This document shows, piece by piece, positions 7,355 to 55,819 of a stretch of 64,000 nt of DNA. Under the pieces are notes generated by a model that worked only from the letters and a program-made list of their open reading frames with translations, had not been told where the DNA came from and searched no databases. Origin of the DNA: Parcubacteria group bacterium (GTDB lineage: Bacteria; Patescibacteriota; Patescibacteriia; UBA1558; GWA2-36-10); NCBI GenBank assembly GCA_003104935.1, contig PQAE01000006.1, positions 1,037 through 65,036 of the forward strand, in the 5' to 3' direction. Each line of letters starts with the position of its first letter. Position 1 is the first letter of the stretch. Made by a program: the position numbers and the translations under genes.

Positions 7355-8770
7355 TTATTTTTTTACCTGAATGCCTAATTCGTCTAATTGCTCTTTAGAT
7401 ACCGCCGAAGGCGAATCCATCATCGGATCCCGTCCGTCTGAAGTTAGTGGAAAAGCAGTTACTTCTTTCAGATTTTTCTCACCCAGCAAAACCATCAATA
7501 ATCTATCAATGCCCGGCGCAATGCCGCCATGCGGCGGTACGCCGTATTTAAAAGCTTCAAAATAATGGGCAAATTGTTTTTTCTGTTCTTTTGTAAAGCC
7601 GATAATGTCCCAAATTTTTTCCTGTAATTTCATATCGTGGATGCGAATCGCTCCTCCACCCACTTCAAAACCATTGAGTACCAGGTCATGCTGATAAGAT
7701 CGAACAGCACCAGGATTTTTGTCTAATTTCTTTATATCCTCTTCTTTAGGAGCGGTAAACATATTATGCGCCGGCCCCCATTTTTCGCCGGCATAATGAA
7801 AGGTGTCTTCTTTGGTCTGAGGCAGCATCAGAGGGAAATTTAAAATCCAGGCAAAAGCCAATTCATCCGGATTATTTTTATCTTTTCTTAGATCCGGCTT
7901 GTCGGTCTTGTATTTTTTTATAACCTCGTCATAATCCAAACGCGGCCATGGTTTTTGGCTAATTTTTTTCTCGGGAAATAAAGTTTCTACTAGTTCGGTG
8001 AATAATTTTTCAGTTAAGTCCAAAACATCTTCTTGTTTTACGAAAGATATCTCCATATCCAGCTGATAAAACTCGCCGGGACTGCGGTCAGCCCGGGCGT
8101 CTTCATCACGGAAGCACGGCGCAATCTGAAAATACTTTTCCATGCCGGCAATCATCAATAGCTGTTTGTACTGCTGGGGCGCCTGAGGCAGGGCAAAAAA
8201 CTCGCCGGGGTGTAGCCGCGACGGCACCAAATAATCTCGCGCTCCTTCCGGAGTGGATTTGGATAATATTGGAGTTTGGATTTCTACAAAATCATGCGCA
8301 TGCAAATATTCCCGGATAAAATGAATGACTTTGTCGCGCCACAAAATATTATTTTTCATGCGCTCATGACGCAGATCTAAATATCTGTATTTTAATCTTA
8401 ATTCTTCATTGGCCTGTCTGTCTTCATTAGCAATTTCAAAAGGCGGAGTTTCCGACTGGGATAAAACCTGTATTTTCTTGACCAGTAATTCAACCGTGCC
8501 CGTAGGCATATCATTATTAATCTGCTTGTCTCCTCTTTTCTGGACTACTCCTTCCACAGCCAAAACAAATTCCGGCCGGATATCCTTGATAATTTGCTGC
8601 GACTCGGAGTCCAGCTCATTTGGCACGACCACGACTTGCATGATTCCCCAGCGGTCGCGCAAATCTAAAAACACTATTTTGCCCATATTGCGCCGGTTAT
8701 TGACCCAGCCTTTGATTAAAACAGTTTTCCCGACCTGAGACACTGTTTCGATGGTTTTGATTCGGTTCAT
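7355..8770 (-). CDS. aspS: aspartyl-tRNA synthetase (short form lacking the GAD insertion domain)
   Basis: 471 aa class II aaRS; QQYKQLLMIAGMEKYFQIAPCFRDEDARADRSPGEFYQLDMEISF closely matches the AspRS motif 2 region (QLLM...CFRDEDLRADRQPEFTQ); N-terminal OB fold. Confidence 0.85.
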   Translation of the reverse strand: MNRIKTIETVSQVGKTVLIKGWVNNRRNMGKIVFLDLRDRWGIMQVVVVPNELDSESQQIIKDIRPEFVLAVEGVVQKRGDKQINNDMPTGTVELLVKKIQVLSQSETPPFEIANEDRQANEELRLKYRYLDLRHERMKNNILWRDKVIHFIREYLHAHDFVEIQTPILSKSTPEGARDYLVPSRLHPGEFFALPQAPQQYKQLLMIAGMEKYFQIAPCFRDEDARADRSPGEFYQLDMEISFVKQEDVLDLTEKLFTELVETLFPEKKISQKPWPRLDYDEVIKKYKTDKPDLRKDKNNPDELAFAWILNFPLMLPQTKEDTFHYAGEKWGPAHNMFTAPKEEDIKKLDKNPGAVRSYQHDLVLNGFEVGGGAIRIHDMKLQEKIWDIIGFTKEQKKQFAHYFEAFKYGVPPHGGIAPGIDRLLMVLLGEKNLKEVTAFPLTSDGRDPMMDSPSAVSKEQLDELGIQVKK

Positions 8771-8869
8771 CCCCTTAGAAATTTAATGATTTATGTTTTT
8801 ATAAATAAAGTGTTTTATCCCCCAGAAATTCTTGAAGTTTAGTTCGCAATTATTTAAATTTCTAAGGGG
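8771..8869 (-). promoter_or_regulatory. inverted-repeat leader hairpin sequestering the aspS RBS and start codon
   Basis: 16-bp perfect IR CCCCTTAGAAATTTAA (8771-8786) / TTAAATTTCTAAGGGG (8854-8869); in the mRNA the downstream arm contains the SD (AAGGGG) immediately before ATG. A second copy of the same element lies at 25884-25943. Confidence 0.4.
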
Positions 8870-8917
8870 ATTCATAAGTATTTATTATCTATATTTTGTA
8901 ATATTTTCTTTGGTGTG

Positions 8918-8941
8918 GATTCCCGCTTTCGCGGGAATGAC
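8918..8941. repeat. solo palindromic motif GATTCCCGCTTTCGCGGGAATGAC (also forms the inner arms of the element at 55702-55780)
   Basis: rc = GTCATTCCCGCGAAAGCGGGAATC; near-identical to GTCATTCCCGCGCAGGCGGGAATC at 55702-55725. Confidence 0.4.
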
Positions 8942-9034
8942 GGTTTGCAGTTTGTCAATGCGAGCCGCGCTCAGCGCGGCGTGGCAATCTACAAGCTTTT
9001 AGATTGCTTCGTCGCCAACAGCTCCTCGCAATGG

Positions 9035-9337
9035 CTACAGGTCCAACAAATCGTCATGTAAATCGCACCATTCTGGATTATCTTTTTTAATTAAAGCTAT
9101 CTTTTTCTTTCTTGGCCCTGCCTTTATATATTTTTCTCTGGAAATAGCATCATGTATATTATCAAATGTTTCATAATACATCAGATTATTAACATTGTAC
9201 CGAGCAGTAAATGATCTTGGATTTATCTTCTCTTTATGTTGGCGCACTCTCAATAATAAATTATTCGTGACGCCAGTATACAAAGTGCCGTTCTTATATG
9301 TAGCTAAAATATAAACAAAATACTGCTTATCGCGCAT
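9035..9337 (-). CDS. GIY-YIG nuclease superfamily protein (UPF0213/YhbQ-like)
   Basis: 100 aa; YFVYIL...GTLYTGVTNNLLLRVRQH matches the GIY-YIG catalytic core. Confidence 0.7.
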   Translation of the reverse strand: MRDKQYFVYILATYKNGTLYTGVTNNLLLRVRQHKEKINPRSFTARYNVNNLMYYETFDNIHDAISREKYIKAGPRKKKIALIKKDNPEWCDLHDDLLDL

Positions 9338-9575: not shown

Positions 9576-9652
9576 TGGAGCCGATGGTCGGAATTGAACC
9601 GACAACCTCTTCCTTACGAAGGAATTGCTCTGCCAGTTGAGCTACATCGGCG
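9576..9652 (-). tRNA. tRNA-Thr (anticodon CGU)
   Basis: rc GCCGATGTAGCTCAACTGGCAGAGCAATTCCTTCGTAAGGAAGAGGTTGTCGGTTCAATTCCGACCATCGGCTCCA; cloverleaf with 7-bp acceptor, D-arm GCTC/GAGC, anticodon loop TTCGTAA, T-arm GTCGG/CCGAC, CCA encoded. Confidence 0.8.
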
Positions 9653-18168: not shown

Positions 18169-18218
18169 AATGAACATACCCCCAGCTAATCGCTGGGGGT
18201 ATGTTCATTATTTTTCCT
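18169..18218. terminator. strong hairpin (AATGAACATACCCCC-N11-GGGGGTATGTTCATT) flanked by T-runs
   Basis: 15-bp perfect stem immediately downstream of the stop of the 18228..22073 giant gene; TATTTTTCC on the + side. Confidence 0.45.
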
Positions 18219-18227
18219 TACAGAAAT

Positions 18228-21200
18228 TTATTTAGCTTTAGCTCTTCTCCTAAATATAAAACCTAGTAAAATACCCATGCCGAAAGCCGCCGCAATCAAA
18301 AACCATTTTCTATCCCAAGCCGATGATGTTTTTAGTTCCACATCTTGGCTGACAAAATCTCCCTTACTGACATCAAAAATCTGCGACTTAAATTCATGAT
18401 AACCAGAAGCTTTGACGGTGAAATAATATTTACCTTCCGGCACCAGGAAATTATATTCACCGGTCTTGTCCGTATGTTGCGGATTAGTCTGATCAAAATC
18501 CTTGCCCGGCCATACTTTAAAATCATCTTGGCTCTGTGGTTTATAATACATCGTCACCTCGGCATCCGGTACCCTTAGCTCTTTGCCGTTGTATTTTTCA
18601 TAAACATAACCTCGTGGATCGATAAGTAGCTGAGTATTGCTGTCGTCCGTAGAGCCGTCTTGATAGTTAATCACGGTTTCCAAAATATATTCGCCGGCGA
18701 TCCAGGGCATATCAATATCGGCTTCATAGATGCCGTCACCATTGGTGTCTGTCAGTGTATATTCGCTGATCAGCCAGGTCTCGTCCGCCTGTGCCACTGG
18801 TACAAAATGCTGGATAATTTCCTTTTCTAAACTAACCTTGGCTGCTTTTTTGAAGATGACTCTGACCTTGATAGAAGTCACGGGTTTGTCCGGCTTGACC
18901 TCCTTTTTTAATTTGCTACCGGCTATCAGAGTAACCGTCTGGTCGCCTATACCTCGACTTAAGATAATCTGACCGGCTGTAGATTCGATAAAAGACTGTC
19001 CCGGTTGCAGGATATTTTCCGGCAGATTAGCCGACGGTGTTACTGGCGGTGTTGTTGGGACTTCCGGAGTCGGCAAAGTTACGACCGGTGCGGGCTGGGG
19101 TTGCGGAGCTGTAGTCGGTGGTCTCACTATCGGAGCCGGAATGGCCGGCAGTGGTGGTTTAGGAATAGTTACCGGCGGCTTGGTAATCACTACCGGCGGT
19201 TTTGGTTTTGATGCTACTGGAGTGACCGGTTTCGGAGGCACGGGAGGCGGCGGAGCCACAATCGGTGGAGTCACTACTGGCGCGGCCACCTGGGTATTTA
19301 AAATTATGCTGTCAAAAACTAGCTCCGAAGCCAAACCCCCGCTGGAATAATATTTCACATATACCGTATAGGTGCCATCCGGACAGGTATCACGCCGCAC
19401 CAGGCCGATATAACTGGAACAAAGATCCCATTGCTTGCTGGCAGTATAATCTTCTTGCCCGGCATCATTGAAGGTGCCGTCCATAGAAATAGCCATTCTG
19501 ACGGTGTTAGCGCCGGCGGTCAGATTTAAACTGACCAAGCGGTCAACAGCTTGAGTTGTTCCGTTATTAATAACTACTCCAAAATTTCCGCCCGGATTAC
19601 CTGACGATGGCGTGGGTGGTGCCGGCGGCACCGGCGGCAAACCGCCGCCGCCCCCGGGACAATTTGTTGTCGAAACGGTAGTGTTAACGGTTGCGGTTTC
19701 AATGCCATCGGCGTTTCTATATTTCACCGCATAAGTATAGCTATTGCCACAGGATAAAGAAGTATCGGTCCAGGAATTAGTATTTATCCAACCGGAATTA
19801 TGATTGCCGCCGGCAAAATAGTATCCCGAAGAGCCGACGCTATTGTTGGTCAAAGCATCAACGCTCAAAGCTACGCTATTGGTACTGCCAGTACCGCTAA
19901 AATTAGTCGGCGTATCGGCTAAAGTATATTTGCTGGCTACGGTGCCGTAAGTACTGGTGTTATTTGTCAGATCGCTAAACTGGACATCATAAGTATATTG
20001 GGTGTTATCGGTAAGACCTTGGTTAGTAATTGAAGATGTGGTGGTAGCGTTTGAGCCAAGGGCAGTAACGCTATCTCTCCGAGCCTGCCATTGATTTAAG
20101 ATGCCGCCCTCGGTTACTACGGTCGGCTTATTGACGACGATGGAGTTTGAGGTCACCGTGCCGAAAGTGGGCGCACCTACGGCTGAAGGCGCGACATTAT
20201 CCACGCCAAAAGCATTTGAGGTCGTCCAGGCGCTGGCATTGGCTGAGCCGTCGTTTGGTCGGACTCTGATATAAACACTGGCGTCTTCTGTGGTAGGCAG
20301 ATCAGTAGCGCTATCCCAGACAAAAGTATGACTAGTGCCGGGACTGGCCGAGGAACTAAGACCGGTCAATCCTTCTCCACCGCCGCTGGTAGCATCAGAC
20401 CAACTGGAATTATCTGTAGAATACTCAAGACCGGAAGAGCCGGTCTGCGAAATGTTTAAAGTATCGGCATCGGCGTCAATCAATTTATAATTTACCGTAA
20501 CATTGGCGCTGTCCCACTCGGCAAAATCATTGGTCAGCGTTGCGCTGGGAATATTATTATAGCCCACGGCGATATTATCCAGCTGGACTAACTGTGTTCC
20601 GTCCGAATGCAAAAAAGCCTTGAACAAAAAACTGCCGCTACCGGTGGAAAAAGTTCCGACGTTGGTATTGACAGTATCGGCCGTGCTGGCCTGAGCATAA
20701 GTGCCGTCCGAAGCGGTCCAACCGCTATTATAATAATACCAGGTAGAGCCCCCGTCATTGCTAATGACATATTTTATTTCTCCCCCGTTTTTAGTGGCTG
20801 TTTCGGTAAAACCAGACAAAGTACTAAAGGTCAAGACTGTAGCCGGTTGTATAGTGGGATCGTCATTAGGATATCTGGTCTGTTCGCTGCCGGCAGAAAT
20901 GCTTTCATCCAATACTTTCCAGACTTTGTAGTCGTCCCAAGAAGGCTGAGAATTCCAAGCATGCACTCCCGGATACAAAGTGGTAATACAATTTCCAGAA
21001 TTAATGCCGGTCAGATCAGCTCTGGTAGTGCCGTCTATCCAGGCCGTAACTCGAGTATTGGTAGGACAAGTAGTGCCATAAGTAACGCGCATCGTGCTAC
21101 GATAATCAACTCCGGTGGTAATCGTGAAAGTCCCGTAATTAACCGGCGTATTACCGTCAGCCAGCTTGGCGCCTAAACGCCAAATTTCCAAATCATTGGC

Positions 21201-22073
21201 CGAAGATCCATAAGTAGTAGTTCGTAAGCCATAACCAGTAGTTTCCGGAACAGAAGTAACCCAAGCGTGTCCGACAGTATTAGTGGTGACTGCTCTCTGC
21301 GACGTTACTTCTGAATACCACCCGCCTGTGGCTCCAAAGGCAAAACCGTTGCTAGTGTCTCCGGAAAATTTATCCGTAGCTTCGGTGGTTAGTTTTTTTA
21401 AACGCCCGGATCCGTCCGGATTCACCTCCCACTGAGTCAAGCCGGCATTAGCCCAAGTACTAGTTGTAGTGAAATCATTATAATAGGAATAAACATTGGT
21501 TAAAACCTGCGGACTAGATGTTGCCGCCCCACTATAACCGTAATACAAATAATAATTAGTGTCCGTACCCGAAGTAGAAACATTTGCCTGAGCTTTAAAA
21601 CGCACATCGCTGTTGACTGGTGCATTACTGGGCGTAGCGGCGATCGCTCCCAGACCGCTGGCCAAATAATCCATGTCAATATTGGTATTATCTGATCCAC
21701 TCCAATAAACTATACGCAAATCTGCGTGATCGGCGCGCATCTTTGAATCGCTGACCAAGGTGGCGATGTCTGCGTTTAAGGTCAGTGTATTCCCAGTAGC
21801 AACAGCGGTAGTGGAGCTGGCGGTGACCGTCAGTTGTTTGCGGTAAAGATAATTAGTGTCCCACCAGGGCGTGGAACGGCCGAGCTGGGCCTGGCCGCCA
21901 CTAAACTCAATCTTAGTGTTATCATAAGTATAGTCTCCGGCAGTGCCAAAATTATAAGTGCCGGAAGCGGCATCCACAGCGCCGGGTTGGTAATAAATAA
22001 AAAAAGAAGCCACAAGACAAAAAACAGTAAATATTACTATAGTTCTGCTTATTCTCCTATGGTTTATAAACAT
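18228..22073 (-). CDS. giant secreted/cell-surface protein (1281 aa) with Pro-rich stalk, CnaB/carboxypeptidase-regulatory-like domain and C-terminal TM anchor
   Basis: N-terminal signal peptide; long Thr/Ser/Gly/Asn-rich beta-rich region; Pro-rich linker (PPVPPAPPTPSS...PPPPVPPKPVTPVASKPKPPVV...); C-terminal GEYNFLVPEGKYYFTVKASGYHEF beta-sandwich motif; terminal FLIAAAFGMGILLGFIFRRRAKAK anchor. Confidence 0.7.
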   Translation of the reverse strand: MFINHRRISRTIVIFTVFCLVASFFIYYQPGAVDAASGTYNFGTAGDYTYDNTKIEFSGGQAQLGRSTPWWDTNYLYRKQLTVTASSTTAVATGNTLTLNADIATLVSDSKMRADHADLRIVYWSGSDNTNIDMDYLASGLGAIAATPSNAPVNSDVRFKAQANVSTSGTDTNYYLYYGYSGAATSSPQVLTNVYSYYNDFTTTSTWANAGLTQWEVNPDGSGRLKKLTTEATDKFSGDTSNGFAFGATGGWYSEVTSQRAVTTNTVGHAWVTSVPETTGYGLRTTTYGSSANDLEIWRLGAKLADGNTPVNYGTFTITTGVDYRSTMRVTYGTTCPTNTRVTAWIDGTTRADLTGINSGNCITTLYPGVHAWNSQPSWDDYKVWKVLDESISAGSEQTRYPNDDPTIQPATVLTFSTLSGFTETATKNGGEIKYVISNDGGSTWYYYNSGWTASDGTYAQASTADTVNTNVGTFSTGSGSFLFKAFLHSDGTQLVQLDNIAVGYNNIPSATLTNDFAEWDSANVTVNYKLIDADADTLNISQTGSSGLEYSTDNSSWSDATSGGGEGLTGLSSSASPGTSHTFVWDSATDLPTTEDASVYIRVRPNDGSANASAWTTSNAFGVDNVAPSAVGAPTFGTVTSNSIVVNKPTVVTEGGILNQWQARRDSVTALGSNATTTSSITNQGLTDNTQYTYDVQFSDLTNNTSTYGTVASKYTLADTPTNFSGTGSTNSVALSVDALTNNSVGSSGYYFAGGNHNSGWINTNSWTDTSLSCGNSYTYAVKYRNADGIETATVNTTVSTTNCPGGGGGLPPVPPAPPTPSSGNPGGNFGVVINNGTTQAVDRLVSLNLTAGANTVRMAISMDGTFNDAGQEDYTASKQWDLCSSYIGLVRRDTCPDGTYTVYVKYYSSGGLASELVFDSIILNTQVAAPVVTPPIVAPPPPVPPKPVTPVASKPKPPVVITKPPVTIPKPPLPAIPAPIVRPPTTAPQPQPAPVVTLPTPEVPTTPPVTPSANLPENILQPGQSFIESTAGQIILSRGIGDQTVTLIAGSKLKKEVKPDKPVTSIKVRVIFKKAAKVSLEKEIIQHFVPVAQADETWLISEYTLTDTNGDGIYEADIDMPWIAGEYILETVINYQDGSTDDSNTQLLIDPRGYVYEKYNGKELRVPDAEVTMYYKPQSQDDFKVWPGKDFDQTNPQHTDKTGEYNFLVPEGKYYFTVKASGYHEFKSQIFDVSKGDFVSQDVELKTSSAWDRKWFLIAAAFGMGILLGFIFRRRAKAK

Positions 22074-25285: not shown

Positions 25286-25364
25286 TGGCTCCAGGGGATG
25301 GGATCGAACCATCGACATCGTGATTAACAGTCACGCGTTCTACCTCTGAACTACCCTGGAATCA
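25286..25364 (-). tRNA. tRNA-Asn (anticodon GUU), 9-nt variable loop
   Basis: rc TCCAGGGTAGTTCAGAGGTAGAACGCGTGACTGTTAATCACGATCGATGTCGATGGTTCGATCCCATCCCCTGGAGCCA; acceptor TCCAGGG/CCCTGGA, anticodon loop CTGTTAA, T-arm GATGG/CCATC, CCA encoded. Confidence 0.7.
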
Positions 25365-25538: not shown

Positions 25539-25886
25539 CTATACCGTTGTTTTGCGGACCGTAGATAATGGCACTAAAAGTACCAATGCATTGCTCAACC
25601 ACATATACCAGGAGCTGAAAAAGCCCCAACCAGTAAAGGGTACGGTCAAAATAATATTGAGCACTAGACCAATTATAACCCAGAGAAAAGAATAGCTCAG
25701 CATAGCTCCGGCACTGTGCGCCGCCACGCTACGGCCAGCAAAATAAGAGGCAACTGCTACTGCGATAGCCACCACAATATCGACCCACGGGGTGCTTGTC
25801 GCTTTGTAGGCCACAAACACCGTGGCGACCAAATAAGCTACTGCCCACACTAAGACCCCGTACCCAAAAACTTTTTTGTAGTTCAT
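25539..25886 (-). CDS. hypothetical membrane protein (4 TM)
   Basis: 115-aa hydrophobic ORF; start codon embedded in the second copy of the aspS-type inverted-repeat leader. Confidence 0.45.
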   Translation of the reverse strand: MNYKKVFGYGVLVWAVAYLVATVFVAYKATSTPWVDIVVAIAVAVASYFAGRSVAAHSAGAMLSYSFLWVIIGLVLNIILTVPFTGWGFFSSWYMWLSNALVLLVPLSTVRKTTV

Positions 25887-25943
25887 CCCGTTAGAGATTT
25901 ATTAATTAGTCGAATCTCGTCGGAAAAAATCTCTAACGGGATT
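25884..25943 (-). promoter_or_regulatory. second copy of the RBS/start-sequestering inverted-repeat leader
   Basis: ATCCCGTTAGAGATT (25884-25898) / AATCTCTAACGGGAT (25929-25943); minus-strand RNA ...AAUCUCUAACGGGAUGAAC closely matches the aspS leader ...AAUUUCUAAGGGGAUGAAC. Confidence 0.4.
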
Positions 25944-25962
25944 CATAAATTAAAAATTAATT

Positions 25963-28668
25963 TTATATTTTACTTTCGATAATTTTGGCGGGTTTTGTGG
26001 TTTGAGAAAACTTGGCCGACAACCAGAGCGACAAGGGTTTGATTAATTCCGTGAGTAGCATCGCCGAAATAACGACCGAGATTATCAGCAGCCATTCGGA
26101 CCAGCTTAAGGGCGTAGTGCGCAGTACTTCATTGAAAAAAGGATGATAAATAGCCACCAGTTGTAGCAGGACGCCGATGATCACGGAAATATTTAAGTAC
26201 CAATTGCGCCAGGGCCGGCTTTTCAAAATATTTACTTCCAGCGCGCGCACGCTAAAAACATAAAACATTGTTTCCAAAGCCACGGTGGTAAAAGTAACAG
26301 TCCGAGCCAGCACTATGTCTTGACTCTGGGACCAAAAAAACCAGAAAATCCAAAGTGAACTGATGGAGGTAATAAGACTGATCGCTAAGATTAAAAATTT
26401 GCTTTCCCAATCCATAAGACTGGCTGATACTTTCGGCTTTTGATTCATGATCCGCTCCTCTTCCGGCTCCAGAGTCAGAGACAGGGCTGGCAAGCCGTCG
26501 GAGATAATGTTCACCCACAGAATCTGGGCGGTCAGTAATGGCAAGGGCAATCCTACCAATAGACTGGCGATGACTATAATCACCTGAGAAAAACTGTCGG
26601 ACAATAAAAATAAAATCACTTTCTTAATGTTGGCGAAAACGACTCGCCCCTGCTTGACGGCCATGACAATAGTGGAAAAATTATTATCCAGGAGCACCAA
26701 GTCGGCGGTTTCCTTGGCCACATCCGAACCGCTCATCACCGCTACGCCGACGTCGGCCGCTTTGAGCGCCGGTGCGTCATTGACGCCGTCGCCGGTCATA
26801 GAGACCACCTCGCCCCGCTGACGCCAGGCGTTGATGATGCGCAATTTGTCCGCCGGCGTGACCCGGGCATAGACTTTGATATTTTTGATGTCTCTGGCCA
26901 GCCGGGCATCATCCATTTTTAACAATTCTTCTCCGGTAATGACGCTTTCCGGACTCAACTCCCAGCCCAGACTCTGGGCGATGGTGCGGGCGGTATATTT
27001 ATTATCACCGGTGATGATCACCGTACGGATACCAGCCGCCAGTGTCTGCTGTAAAGTTTCCTTTATTTCCAAACGTAAAGGATCAGACAAACCCCAGATG
27101 CCCACAAATATAAAATCGCTTTCCGTCAATTCGCCTGCCAGAAAATCTTTATTTTTACTGACCAGGCGATAGGCCCCGGCTAAAACACGCAAACCCTGCC
27201 GGCTAAACTCCTGCCAGGCCTCGTCAAAATATTTTATTTTTTCCGGACCGAGACGCACATAATCATTGCGGTGCTGATAATACAAACAAAAACCCAATAT
27301 TTTTTCCGGAGCGCCCTTGAGATATTCAATATCCCGCGTCTGATCATAGTGATGGCGCGTAATCATATACTTATACTGCGAATCAAAGGGCAATTCGTTT
27401 TTGCGCGCCCGTTTTTTATCCAAATCCTGCCAATCCAAATGGCGTAGACCAAATAGAAATAGGGCTTTTTCCGTGGGCGTAGCAATCACTTTCCAGAGAT
27501 CCTGAGGCTCCTCACTATTTTCAACAATAGCATTATTACAGAGCAGAGAAATCTGGGAAATTTTGTTTAATTCCTGATCCCACTGCTGATCTTTGAGTGA
27601 ACTGGCCGCCAGATCAAGATGATGGCTGGCTGTAGCCAGCTGAGTAACACGCATCTCACCCTCGGTCAAAGTGCCGGTCTTATCAGTACAGATAACTGTA
27701 GTTGACCCCAAAGTTTCGGCGGAAACCAGGCGGCGGACCAAACCATTGTAGTGCAGGATGCGGCGCATGCCCACGGTCAGTATCATGGTCAAACTGATGG
27801 CCAGCCCCTCCGGTATGGCCGAAACGGCCACGGCCACTGAAATAATGAACATCTCCGGCATGGGATAATTTTTTATCATGCCAAAGACAAACATAACCAG
27901 TGAAACCAGACAAATAACTTTGGTGATACTTTTGGAAAAACTGCTCAATTTTTTTTGCAAAGGAGTCGGATCGTCGGCTGTCTCGGCCAACATGGTGGTG
28001 ATCTGCCCGATTTCGCTTCTGATGCCAGTTTCAGTCACGACTGCCGTGCCCCGGCCGACTACTACCAAGGTACCCATATAAACCATATTAGCCCGCTCGG
28101 CCAGGACCAGACCCGGCGATAATGGTTCTGTTTTCTTCTTTATCGGCCAGGATTCGCCGGTCAGCGAAGCCTCGTTGGTTTCCAGGCCACTCGAGTCAAT
28201 GACGCGGGCATCGGCCGGCACGCGGTCCCCGGACTGCAGATTGATAATATCCCCAGGCACTAACTGACTGGACTCAGTCTTTTTTTCCCGGCCGTCGCGC
28301 CAAACCAGAGTTTCTTTCTTGACGACGCTATTTAATTGCTCCAGAGATCTGTTGGCTTTATACTCCTGGATAAATCCGATTATGACATTGATCAACACTG
28401 CCGCTAAAATCAAGAGGGCATCCACTAAATCACTAAAAAAAACGCTGACTATACTGGCGATAATCAGAATATAGACCAAGGGACTCTTAAATTGGTATAA
28501 AAAAAGGCGAGCAACGGAAAAAGGACGCCTTTTGGCCAAAATATTAAGTCCATATCTGGACCGGCGCTTTTCGGCCTCGGACTCCGTCAAACCCTTAGTA
28601 GTGCTATTTAGATTTTTTAGTGACTGATGAGCACTAAGGGCATGCCAAACTGTTGCTGACTTTACCAT
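25963..28668 (-). CDS. cation-transporting P-type ATPase (P2-type, Ca2+/Mg2+-ATPase-like)
   Basis: 901 aa; DKTGTLT phosphorylation motif, TGDN, GDGVNDAPAL hinge, 10 TM. Confidence 0.85.
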   Translation of the reverse strand: MVKSATVWHALSAHQSLKNLNSTTKGLTESEAEKRRSRYGLNILAKRRPFSVARLFLYQFKSPLVYILIIASIVSVFFSDLVDALLILAAVLINVIIGFIQEYKANRSLEQLNSVVKKETLVWRDGREKKTESSQLVPGDIINLQSGDRVPADARVIDSSGLETNEASLTGESWPIKKKTEPLSPGLVLAERANMVYMGTLVVVGRGTAVVTETGIRSEIGQITTMLAETADDPTPLQKKLSSFSKSITKVICLVSLVMFVFGMIKNYPMPEMFIISVAVAVSAIPEGLAISLTMILTVGMRRILHYNGLVRRLVSAETLGSTTVICTDKTGTLTEGEMRVTQLATASHHLDLAASSLKDQQWDQELNKISQISLLCNNAIVENSEEPQDLWKVIATPTEKALFLFGLRHLDWQDLDKKRARKNELPFDSQYKYMITRHHYDQTRDIEYLKGAPEKILGFCLYYQHRNDYVRLGPEKIKYFDEAWQEFSRQGLRVLAGAYRLVSKNKDFLAGELTESDFIFVGIWGLSDPLRLEIKETLQQTLAAGIRTVIITGDNKYTARTIAQSLGWELSPESVITGEELLKMDDARLARDIKNIKVYARVTPADKLRIINAWRQRGEVVSMTGDGVNDAPALKAADVGVAVMSGSDVAKETADLVLLDNNFSTIVMAVKQGRVVFANIKKVILFLLSDSFSQVIIVIASLLVGLPLPLLTAQILWVNIISDGLPALSLTLEPEEERIMNQKPKVSASLMDWESKFLILAISLITSISSLWIFWFFWSQSQDIVLARTVTFTTVALETMFYVFSVRALEVNILKSRPWRNWYLNISVIIGVLLQLVAIYHPFFNEVLRTTPLSWSEWLLIISVVISAMLLTELIKPLSLWLSAKFSQTTKPAKIIESKI

Positions 28669-31530: not shown

Positions 31531-31607
31531 TGGTGCGCCCAGTAGGATTCGAACCTACGACCGTTTGCTTAAAAGGCAACTGCTCTACCAGGCTGAGCTA
31601 TAGGCGC
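31531..31607 (-). tRNA. tRNA-Lys (anticodon UUU)
   Basis: rc GCGCCTATAGCTCAGCCTGGTAGAGCAGTTGCCTTTTAAGCAAACGGTCGTAGGTTCGAATCCTACTGGGCGCACCA; anticodon loop CTTTTAA; T-loop TTCGAAT; CCA encoded. Confidence 0.8.
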
Positions 31608-36302: not shown

Positions 36303-36337
36303 ACCCCGCCGCGTCTGACGCGGCAGGATTTTTTTAT
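36303..36337. terminator. bidirectional terminator CCCCGCCGCGTC-TGA-CGCGGCAGG + ATTTTTTTAT
   Basis: Between convergent recR (+) and rplU (-). Confidence 0.55.
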
Positions 36338-36651
36338 AATACTATTTTATCAATCTTGACTTCGGCCAACTGTTGGCGGTGGCCATAGCGACGTCTGTAT
36401 CTGACTTTACTCTTGTACTTAAAGACGTCAATTTTTTTGTCTTTATAGTTCCGTACCAAACTGGCCTCAACTTTGGCTCCGGTCACATGTGGTTTACCAA
36501 TAGTCACATTATCATTATCCGCCAGCAACAACACTTCATCAAAAACTACTTTATCGCCGGACTTTTGAGCCATGCTTAATTTCTCCACGCTTAAGATATC
36601 GCCCTGAGAGACTTGATATTGTTTTCCACCGGTCTTAATGATTGCAAACAT
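36334..36651 (-). CDS. rplU: ribosomal protein L21
   Basis: 105 aa; MFAIIKTGGKQYQVSQGDIL conserved L21 N-terminus. Confidence 0.85.
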   Translation of the reverse strand: MFAIIKTGGKQYQVSQGDILSVEKLSMAQKSGDKVVFDEVLLLADNDNVTIGKPHVTGAKVEASLVRNYKDKKIDVFKYKSKVRYRRRYGHRQQLAEVKIDKIVL

Positions 36652-36775
36652 AATTTTTTTCTTATCAATATAACGGGATGTATATTAACAAAAAAAACCA
36701 GAATTGTCAATTATTTAGGTTTTACATAATGTTTAGCCACATAAGTAGTAGCCTTGTTTATTCGACCTTACTGAC

Positions 36776-40127: not shown

Positions 40128-40202
40128 TGGTGACCCCACCGGGAATCGAACCCGGATTGCCAGGTTGAGAACCTGACGTCCTAACCGTTAGACGATGGGG
40201 CC
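40128..40202 (-). tRNA. tRNA-Glu (anticodon CUC)
   Basis: rc GGCCCCATCGTCTAACGGTTAGGACGTCAGGTTCTCAACCTGGCAATCCGGGTTCGATTCCCGGTGGGGTCACCA; anticodon loop TTCTCAA; T-loop TTCGATT; CCA encoded. Confidence 0.8.
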
Positions 40203-54809: not shown

Positions 54810-55331
54810 TTAACTCTTTTTCTCTTTGATGGCGCTCAGGGCATAAACCAGTTTACGGGTATTGCCACTCAGTACTTGAACCAAACCACTGATCGGAGCA
54901 TTGATAGTGCCGACCAATTTAGCCAGTAATTGCTCGCGGCTGGGCAGTGTGGCTAAGCGTTTGACCATGTCGGCCAAGACAAACTTGTTTTCCAAAATAC
55001 CGCTACCGAGTTCCAGAGCTTCATTTTCCTTGGCATACTTATTGATTATCTTGGGCCCGGTTACCTCGTCTCCATAAGACAAAGTTACGCCGACAGAACC
55101 ACGTAAGTTGTCCAAAGCCTCGGCTTCACCTAGTTCTTTGGTAGCCAACTGTAAAATGGTTTTTTTGGCGACCAAATACTCTGCTCCACCCTGCTTTAAC
55201 TCACGACGCATTTTTTCTACGGTTTTGACGTTTAACCCCTTGTCGGAACTAAAAACCACGGCCTTACTTTTGGCTATTTTTTCCTTGATATCCTCTAAAA
55301 CCTTCTTTTTTTGGGCTTTACTTTTTGGCAT
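54810..55331 (-). CDS. rplJ: ribosomal protein L10
   Basis: 173 aa; immediately upstream of rplL; typical L10 N-terminal region. Confidence 0.85.
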   Translation of the reverse strand: MPKSKAQKKKVLEDIKEKIAKSKAVVFSSDKGLNVKTVEKMRRELKQGGAEYLVAKKTILQLATKELGEAEALDNLRGSVGVTLSYGDEVTGPKIINKYAKENEALELGSGILENKFVLADMVKRLATLPSREQLLAKLVGTINAPISGLVQVLSGNTRKLVYALSAIKEKKS

Positions 55332-55560: not shown

Positions 55561-55680
55561 CTATATGAGAGGGGAAACTCTCCAACTCTCGGAGATGGAG
55601 GTAACTACCACGGCGTCCATAAGAGTACTGTTAATAAACGTAAATTACCACAAAAAATCTAATGTGCCAACAGTTATAGC

Positions 55681-55806
55681 GGCCGAAGCTGGCCTTATTT
55701 TGTCATTCCCGCGCAGGCGGGAATCTAAAAGTATTATCATATCACTTAGCCTGTAGATTCCCATTTTCATGGGAATGACAGACAAGGCATACGGCCAGCT
55801 TCGGCC
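55681..55806. mobile_element. MITE-like nested palindromic element
   Basis: Outer 14-bp perfect IR GGCCGAAGCTGGCC (55681-55694) / GGCCAGCTTCGGCC (55793-55806). Inner inverted pair of hairpin motifs GTCATTCCCGCGCAGGCGGGAATC (55702-55725) and GATTCCCATTTTCATGGGAATGAC (55757-55780). No coding capacity; intergenic between the rplJ leader and mltG. Confidence 0.45.
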
Positions 55807-55819
55807 GCATCAAAAAATA

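Follow-up and report, generated by a model that had tools for sequence, protein, structure and literature searches.

In a 64,000-nt stretch of the genome of a Parcubacteria group bacterium (GenBank assembly GCA_003104935.1, contig PQAE01000006.1, positions 1,037 to 65,036 of the forward strand; 45% G+C), hereafter called the window, the start codon of aspS, the gene for aspartate--tRNA ligase (AspRS), overlaps one arm of a long perfect inverted repeat, which raises the question of whether such a structure serves the translational control of an essential gene or has a different origin. An earlier note, made from the sequence alone, had described a 16-bp perfect repeat with a loop of about 67 nt at this site and an almost identical element in front of an unrelated gene, had considered either a translational control hairpin or a small mobile element, and had named RNA folding, a genome-wide search for further copies, the leaders of orthologous aspS genes and the insertion contexts in relatives as means to decide. 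Both hairpins belong to a repeat family of defined architecture, which is positioned at gene starts, is dispersed among unrelated flanks and has been gained or lost at aspS, with a single ATGAA present at empty sites. Very probably, each is formed by pairing between the terminal inverted repeats of a short non-coding derivative, similar to miniature inverted-repeat transposable elements (MITEs), of a selfish element widespread in Patescibacteria, the candidate phyla radiation (CPR).

The complete copy 1, including both ATGAA direct repeats, comprises 110 nt (8766-8875, minus strand) and aligns end to end with the copies found upstream of aspS in two related genomes (L003 and L004; loci in other genomes carry L numbers throughout). 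The abutting aspS gene (7355-8770, minus strand) encodes a class II synthetase of the Asp/Asn/Lys type with 471 aa, to which a "Parcubacteria group bacterium" protein is 100% identical and Komeilibacteria proteins are about 80% identical, in agreement with a CPR origin of the window; the identical database protein carries the name aspartate--tRNA ligase. In the mRNA sense, copy 1 reads ATGAATCCCCTTAGAAATTTAA ... TTAAATTTCTAAGGGG-ATGAAC and in full AATACTT-ATGAA-TCCCCTTAGAAATTTAA-(67 nt)-TTAAATTTCTAAGGGG-ATGAA-CCGA, with the second ATG being the aspS start. Its left (5') inverted repeat ATCCCCTTAGAAATTTAA (8854-8871, minus strand) and its right (3') inverted repeat TTAAATTTCTAAGGGGAT (8769-8786, minus strand) were found with a repeat finder to be 18 nt long, 100% complementary and 67 nt apart, so that the loop length given earlier was right and each arm is two bases longer than had been reported. 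The right arm ends with the first two bases, A and T, of the start codon of aspS. The upstream ATGAA (8871-8875, minus strand), resembling a target-site duplication, also opens a remnant small open reading frame (ORF) of 30 codons, MNPLRNLNN... (8783-8875, minus strand), and the downstream ATGAA (8766-8770, minus strand) consists of the aspS start codon and two further bases. Seen directly in the sequence is also an internal segment AATTTCTGGGGGAT (8817-8830, minus strand), which resembles the right arm, could pair alternatively with the left arm and is unpaired in the minimum-free-energy fold; similar segments of the ACGGGAT type occur near the left end of many copies of the family.

Copy 2 (25882-25946, minus strand; 65 nt with both ATGAA direct repeats) precedes a 115-aa ORF without a Pfam match (25539-25886, minus strand), located directly downstream of a P-type ATPase gene (25963-28668), and bears out the claim of a near-identical second element before an unrelated gene. 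It reads ATGAATCCCGTTAGAGATTT ... AAATCTCTAACGGG-ATGAAC and in full TTAATTT-ATGAA-TCCCGTTAGAGATTT-(loop)-AAATCTCTAACGGG-ATGAA-CTAC, with the second ATG being the start of the 115-aa ORF. The repeat finder gave a left inverted repeat with the core ATCCCGTTAGAGATTT (25924-25942, minus strand) and a right one with the core AAATCTCTAACGGGAT (25885-25903, minus strand), the latter overlapping the start codon and recovered also in the fold; these arms are 19 nt long at 95%, lie 20 nt apart and contain a perfect 16-bp core. Here the first ATG opens a small ORF of 14 codons, MNPVRDFFRRDSTN, whose stop lies 18 nt upstream of the host AUG, as compared with 15 nt in copy 1. Both inverted repeats terminate in GGGATGAAC. 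The 14-mer TCTAASGGGATGAA common to both copies has six matches in the window at two mismatches or fewer, against 0.9 expected and with none of 100 shuffles reaching six, and four of these six are the arms of copies 1 and 2. Using RNA folding, both hairpins were recovered as the dominant structure of the minimum-free-energy fold (copy 1, -26.9 kcal/mol, z = -2.9; copy 2, -26.1 kcal/mol, z = -2.6), with the start-codon A and U predicted to be paired in both copies.

Further copies of this element are abundant. Scanning one genome per species with the left-arm pattern ATGAATCCCNTTAGANATTT revealed at least 118 loci, as compared with about 17 expected by chance. In genuine matches, a right arm of the form ...(A/T)T(T/C)TCTAACGGG-ATGAA follows 20-270 nt downstream of the left arm, and the listed loci together with the window provide at least 114 distinct complete elements with a matching 3' arm ...TCTAACGGGATG. 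Among the matches listed, nearly all titled records are from Patescibacteria, often with several copies per genome, and they cover Saccharibacteria, Doudna-, Nomura-, Komeili-, Uhr-, Wildermuth-, Levyi- and Campbellbacteria, Paceibacterota and Kazan, besides a few metagenome-assembled genomes (MAGs) labelled Omnitrophota, Nitrospirae or Planctomycetota. Matches in cultured Bacillus, Enterococcus and Flavilitoribacter are without the right arm and look like the chance fraction, and two of the three matches in a viral collection are complete short copies. Several genomes contain four or five copies within the few kb fetched. Copies within one genome have a mutual identity of 65-95%, and their 200-nt flanks of about 50%, which is the background level. 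Tandem and nested copies were also observed (L025 with an array at 273-590, L010, L034 and L103), in which neighbours have a single common ATGAA in the arrangement ...TCTAACGGG-ATGAA-TCCCGTTAGA..., as though the flanking repeat of one copy had been the insertion site of the next. Sixteen elements do not have ATGAA on both sides, and in six of them the two pentamers covary (ATGGA...ATGGA in four, ATAAA...ATAAA in two). The designation of ATGAA as a target-site duplication is subject to the limit that site-specific insertion beside ATGAA without any duplication would give an identical pattern.

Two observations concern sequences related to the arms. An arm variant with an extra C/G (CCCCGTTAGA ... 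TCTAACGGGG) is located downstream of aspS in more distant Patescibacteria (L139, 1472-1571; L177, 5833-5900; L200, 3236-3303), and its sequence suggests the existence of further element subfamilies. In the window, ATACATCCCGTTATA (36669-36683, minus strand), 18-32 nt upstream of a 105-aa ORF (36334-36651), resembles the left arm with three mismatches, is without a right arm and could be either a relic or a chance match, since 3.3 such matches are expected.

What the arms are in the intact form, a point beyond the view of the earlier note, is revealed by longer relatives with the same ends, in which these arms are the two ends of a gene for a GIY-YIG nuclease. Five elements of 287-304 nt (L019, L116, L097, L023 and L049) hold an ORF between the same arms, which starts at the first ATG of the element in four of them and at an internal ATG in L097. 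The encoded protein, for example MNPVRDFNLMFYIYVIESKKNGRWYTGSTNDLRKRFNQHN...REKYLKSGMGKCYLKNRLKRFLSLTG, has 93-95 aa and PF01541 as its sole domain (E = 2.7e-19), with the UPF0213 protein 1zg2 as the nearest solved structure; it has matches in more than 3,700 database clusters, of which the best are exactly 95 aa long with an MNPVRD N-terminus and an FLSLTG C-terminus. The left repeat encodes the first codons, ATG AAT CCC GTT AGA GAT (MNPVRD), and the right repeat the last ones, TTC CTA TCT CTA ACG GGA TGA (FLSLTG-stop). The nuclease gene ends in one of two ways, with a TGA contained in GGG-ATGA, so that its stop overlaps the host start, or with the TAA of TCTAACGGG, which lies four bases before the host start; in L203-L205 the gene (1501-1788) shares 4 nt with the one that follows it (start 1785). 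To judge from its sequence, the MNP(L/V)R small ORF of the short copies, including that of copy 1, is a remnant of the nuclease N-terminus. As a whole, the element resembles an insertion sequence (IS): it is bounded by terminal inverted repeats, with ATGAA repeated directly on either side, it has a single small nuclease ORF, and short derivatives of it abound.

Short copies of 60-200 nt have lost the ORF with their arms intact, and the arms must thus be constrained as nucleic acid. At the variable arm positions, the two partners change in concert: the first variable pair is G:C in 93 of 97 elements, and the second is A:T in 52, G:C in 32, T:A in 4, C:G in 1 and non-complementary in 8. In some short copies, an inverted repeat from inside the ORF, GGAAACGC...GCGTTTCC, survives as a hairpin next to the right arm (L089, L058 and L014, as compared with the full-length L019 and L116), which indicates that the short copies arose by internal deletion. 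The same observation is predicted by an alternative, according to which the copies of the window never moved as short elements and each represents a full-length GIY-YIG insertion stripped of its interior at its locus. Such decay in place agrees with the retention of exactly both ORF ends and would explain the gene-start position common to short and full-length forms. However, short copies at different loci of one genome resemble each other internally, with up to 93-95% identity (L017/L069 and L008/L042) in unrelated flanks, and tandem arrays of short copies exist (L025), which makes this alternative unlikely as compared with the dispersal of short derivatives.

Comparison of insertion contexts across relatives revealed filled as well as empty aspS sites. 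The site is filled at the same position in the window, in L003 (88% AspRS identity; L210 and L211 have the same sequence) and in L004 (81%). It is empty in L002 (87%), where a tRNA gene is followed by AAAAAATTT-ATGACAAGA and aspS starts with ATGAC and not with ATGAA, in L212 and L213 (80%; ...AACAAT-ATGAATCGT and ...AATTAT-ATGAACAGA) and in L124 (70%; ...AAACAT-ATGAACCGA). A metagenome scan with AspRS returned relatives of 49-72% identity, which were used as empty-site controls; no further filled site was found among them, and in all the others with an examinable aspS start no element is present upstream of aspS. In the AspRS identity matrix, the empty L002 nests within the trio it forms with the window and L003, whereas the filled L004 falls outside, and hence at least two gain or loss events must have occurred at aspS. 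An element-free state was also found for the 115-aa gene, whose three detectable orthologues are all without the element; two of these, L207 and L208, begin with ATGAACTA(T/C)AAAAAA, as does the window sequence downstream of the element. Empty sites contain one ATGAA where filled sites have two (aspS in L124, L212 and L213; the 115-aa gene in L207 and L208). Since element-free orthologues start at the same ATGAAC, with AspRS beginning MNR/MTR at the equivalent position, the 3' ATG is the native start codon of the host gene. This removes one part of the mobile-element proposal, namely that the insertion supplies a ready-made Shine-Dalgarno (SD) sequence with ATG-AAC; the reading as a small mobile element is otherwise supported.

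The position of the element with respect to genes is highly non-random. With ORFs called mechanically throughout, 106 elements from the matches listed could be evaluated and are not in tandem; of these, 90 have a 3' ATG that begins an ORF of 100 codons or more, 11 one of 50-99 codons and 5 one of fewer than 50. For all ATGAA in the same loci, the share that begins an ORF of 100 codons or more is 21% (P = 2e-44). In the window, 12 ATGAA are located at gene starts, 19 elsewhere in intergenic DNA and 116 in coding sequence, and 12 of about 61 genes begin with ATGAA. Random insertion at ATGAA followed by the loss of gene-disrupting insertions predicts about 39% at gene starts, significantly less than observed (P = 1e-22). 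No extended target motif beyond ATGAA was detected, the flanks being simply A/T-rich, and the distance between the two ATG codons shows no preference for multiples of three across the family. A translated N-terminal extension of the host protein was considered and rejected, as both window copies have in-frame stops and in-frame read-through occurs in only 2 of the 108 short copies.

A quite improbable reading, compatible with a mobile origin, is that the hairpin has been retained or domesticated by the host as a translational regulator, which occludes the start codon and so makes the translation of aspS and the 115-aa gene depend on temperature, on a binding factor or on whether the small upstream ORF is translated. 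The predicted pairing of A and U of the AUG in both minimum-free-energy folds agrees with this, as does the internal arm-like segment of the aspS copies, which could form an alternative pairing. The aspS arms are intact in the window, L003 and L004 despite diverged loops, only about 60% alike, and a compensatory exchange has given CCCC/GGGG in the window where the other aspS copies have CCCG/CGGG. The small ORF, moreover, stops inside the right arm in 26 of 108 short copies, a modest excess over the 10.6 expected (P = 1e-5). However, it stops early in 80 of 108, so that coupling is not general. The element is missing from aspS of equally close and of all more distant relatives examined; with the structure present in the orthologous leaders of L003/L210/L211 and L004 and absent from those of L002, L212, L213, L124 and the other relatives, a conserved leader specific to aspS can be ruled out because of the empty orthologous sites. 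Arms of the same sequence are located before more than 100 unrelated genes from many phylum-level CPR lineages, and they are conserved in sequence and not in pairing alone, as the nearly invariant G:C of the first variable pair illustrates. Thus, of the proposed translational control hairpin the predicted coverage of the AUG stands, and its tie to aspS or to any regulon does not.

The earlier note had also suggested sequestration of an SD sequence along with burial of the start codon, and of the two only the latter is predicted by the fold. The G-run (GGGG or CGGG) abuts the ATG with no spacer, not at SD distance, and most genes of the window have A/T-rich upstream regions without an SD-like sequence, and hence sequestration of an SD sequence is unsupported. 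In some copies of the element elsewhere (L020, L118, L070 and L214), unlike most genes of the window, AGGAGG is located about 12 nt before the host ATG. Searches of Rfam gave no match at the gathering score at either site, whether to T-box, riboswitch, leader or thermometer families, in agreement with the earlier observation that a T-box consensus is absent; hits with E up to 10 were generic long-hairpin models far below their thresholds. At both copies, the strand of the genes gave no site resembling a terminator or a promoter, and neither hairpin is followed by a T-run. A LexA-type operator was similarly rejected, since the spacing of its CTAA-N5-TTAG motif (taken from one paper) does not fit; an integron attC site is unlikely, as the arms of copy 1 are without a GTTRRRY core. 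That the perfect inverted repeats adjoining gene starts form the operator of a palindrome-binding transcription factor or bound an invertible DNA switch can practically be dismissed, because half-site spacings from about 20 to more than 250 nt do not allow a single dimeric operator, recombinase-mediated inversion needs segments longer than 20-67 bp, no recombinase gene is associated, the intact form has a nuclease ORF between the repeats, and no promoter-like site was found on the relevant strand.

Several points weigh against interpreting the hairpins as remains of a mobile element. The intact arms with a compensatory exchange and diverged loops could mean that host-level selection acts on the aspS hairpin, or that its pairing is to some extent selected at the DNA level. 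The strong bias towards gene starts is real and is only partly explained by an ATGAA target. A full-length copy was not found within the 64 kb of the source genome that were read. The GIY-YIG domain is not an established transposase domain, and a mobilising role of the nuclease is putative. Since the search pattern demanded ATGAAT at the left end, the constancy of the left ATGAA is partly built in, and in 10 of the 16 elements lacking ATGAA on both sides the left and right pentamers differ. Finally, the assignment of some hosts to Omnitrophota, Planctomycetota or Bacteroidales MAGs may reflect contamination during binning.

The following scheme can be proposed. An intact element of about 290-300 bp with one gene sits at the ATGAA that opens a host gene, such that the upstream ATGAA becomes the start codon of the nuclease, which would in this way borrow the host initiation site. 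The downstream ATGAA remains the start of the host gene, with the ATGA overlap, or the TAA four bases upstream, permitting its translation by coupling. Internal deletion would then produce copies of 60-200 bp with the ends only, which pair into a long hairpin. By analogy with the Ssn nucleases and with IS200/IS605 elements, the nuclease may recognise these ends, probably as hairpins in single-stranded DNA, cut at the ATGAA junctions and so drive movement. According to the predicted folds, translation of aspS and of the 115-aa gene should start less readily because of the leftover hairpin, although translation of the remnant ORF could open the stem; we regard such hindrance as a tolerated by-product and not as the reason for the sequence. 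It is conceivable, and proposed here tentatively as a conjecture that may well prove wrong, that this is a previously undescribed IS-like class, in which a bare 95-aa GIY-YIG nuclease acts on end hairpins and integrates at the ATGAA of start codons, the host surviving via the ATGA overlap, and which has spread through many CPR phyla leaving hundreds of start-codon hairpins behind.

If the 95-aa GIY-YIG protein truly moves the element, its nuclease fold would be added to the known transposition enzymes and hairpin nucleases of the Ssn type would gain a clear selfish-element origin. The position at the start codon would be an unusual strategy, in which a parasite gene takes the host initiation site and gives it back via translational coupling. 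The annotation of CPR genomes is affected in practice, since many small "hypothetical proteins" starting with MNPVR are remnants of the element and many real genes, including the essential aspS, bear a 16-18-bp hairpin over the start codon in organisms largely without SD sequences.

Other features of the window include a ribosomal protein L10 leader (RF00557; 55331-55455, minus strand; 48.4 bits against a gathering score of 44) upstream of an ORF at 54810-55331, and four tRNA genes (9579-9651, 25289-25360, 31534-31607 and 40131-40202). A perfect 18-bp hairpin with a 5-nt loop, AATGAACATACCCCCAGC / GCTGGGGGTATGTTCATT (18169-18209), is located just past the stop of a 1281-aa ORF (18228-22073, minus strand) and is followed by TTTCGG; it is probably a terminator and contains ATGAAC/GTTCAT and none of the arm sequence of the element.

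Among known systems, the closest one described is that of the Ssn nucleases with their NTS/SRM hairpin repeats (PMC11893778). Ssn nucleases are GIY-YIG proteins of 94 aa, which bind a hairpin repeat in single-stranded DNA and cleave on its upstream side at a distance of a few bases (Chenal et al. 2025, PMC11893778), and whose genes are flanked by their own repeats, an arrangement that the authors likened to an insertion sequence, raising the analogy with IS200/IS605 and REP (PMC11893778). The element shares with them an IS-like architecture, repeats in many scattered copies near genes and, in its full-length relatives (93-95 aa) and not in the window copies, a single-domain GIY-YIG protein of about 94 aa, for which a similar cleavage of single-stranded DNA is putative and rests on this analogy. 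However, the ends of the element pair with each other and overlap the start and stop of the ORF, whereas NTS are self-contained hairpins of 20-50 nt outside the gene, and the location of copies exactly on host start codons with an ATGAA direct repeat is unreported for NTS. The arms do not belong to the published SRM/NTS class either, as they fail the SRM search motif HGTCWYN(0-2)YYVSBRHN(0-5)WNVSBRGN(0-2)RNCYNB (PMC11893778), whose sole match in a regular-expression scan of the window (8915-8942, minus strand) is a neighbouring NTS-like hairpin.

This hairpin, CGTCATTCCCGCGAAAGCGGGAATCCAC (8915-8942, minus strand), is one base off the Neisseria NTS consensus (PMC11893778) and follows a 100-aa GIY-YIG gene (9035-9337, minus strand; PF01541) directly upstream of copy 1. 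From its sequence, the locus 8915-9337 seems to represent, within a CPR genome, an Ssn nuclease gene accompanied by its cognate repeat; the protein of the element is 40% identical over 72 residues to this Ssn-like protein, and the gene with its spacer is also present upstream of aspS in L003 and L210. At 55679-55808, between the L10 leader and the next gene, lies a nested palindrome whose outer arms GCGGCCGAAGCTGGCCTTAT / ATACGGCCAGCTTCGGCCGC surround two NTS-like hairpins in opposite orientation, with no nuclease gene between them; one of its segments (55701-55728) has two mismatches to the NTS consensus. Using full-text searches of the literature, no description was found of the element sequence, of a GIY-YIG element targeting start codons or of such repeats in CPR genomes.

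As compared with bacterial MITEs such as the Correia elements of Neisseria, the likeness is extensive, comprising short length, terminal inverted repeats, a short direct repeat, many dispersed gene-adjacent copies with unrelated flanks and long hairpins when transcribed. The window copies of 110 and 65 nt are non-coding but for remnant ORFs, have repeats of 18 bp and 16-19 bp and carry ATGAA on both sides, with a single target at empty sites, and the family provides the many dispersed copies with unrelated flanks. Known MITEs derive from insertion sequences with a DDE transposase and use short generic targets (TA in the case of Correia), whereas the sole related coding element here encodes a GIY-YIG nuclease and about 85-95% of the copies are located exactly at a start codon; the structural features of a MITE are thus present, but the enzyme putatively responsible for mobilisation is not among the known transposases.

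Elements of the IS200/IS605 family and the REP/BIME-RAYT systems resemble this one in their very small size, hairpin-forming ends, specific 4-5-nt junction site and abundant non-autonomous palindromic derivatives, and possibly, by analogy, in a single-strand DNA mechanism. Membership in either is rejected, as the only ORF in full-length copies encodes a GIY-YIG protein and there is no Y1 (HUH) transposase. IS200/IS605 elements have neither target duplication nor terminal inverted repeats, whereas the present element has a terminal inverted repeat and an ATGAA direct repeat. With the free-standing GIY-YIG homing endonucleases of phages (Seg, Mob), it has in common a selfish gene wedged between host genes that relies on host expression signals. 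However, those enzymes possess a DNA-binding domain and move into the corresponding locus of other genomes, whereas the protein of the element is a bare catalytic domain and the element is present at many loci in one genome. Thus, we file it among the palindromic repeat elements tied to stand-alone GIY-YIG nucleases.

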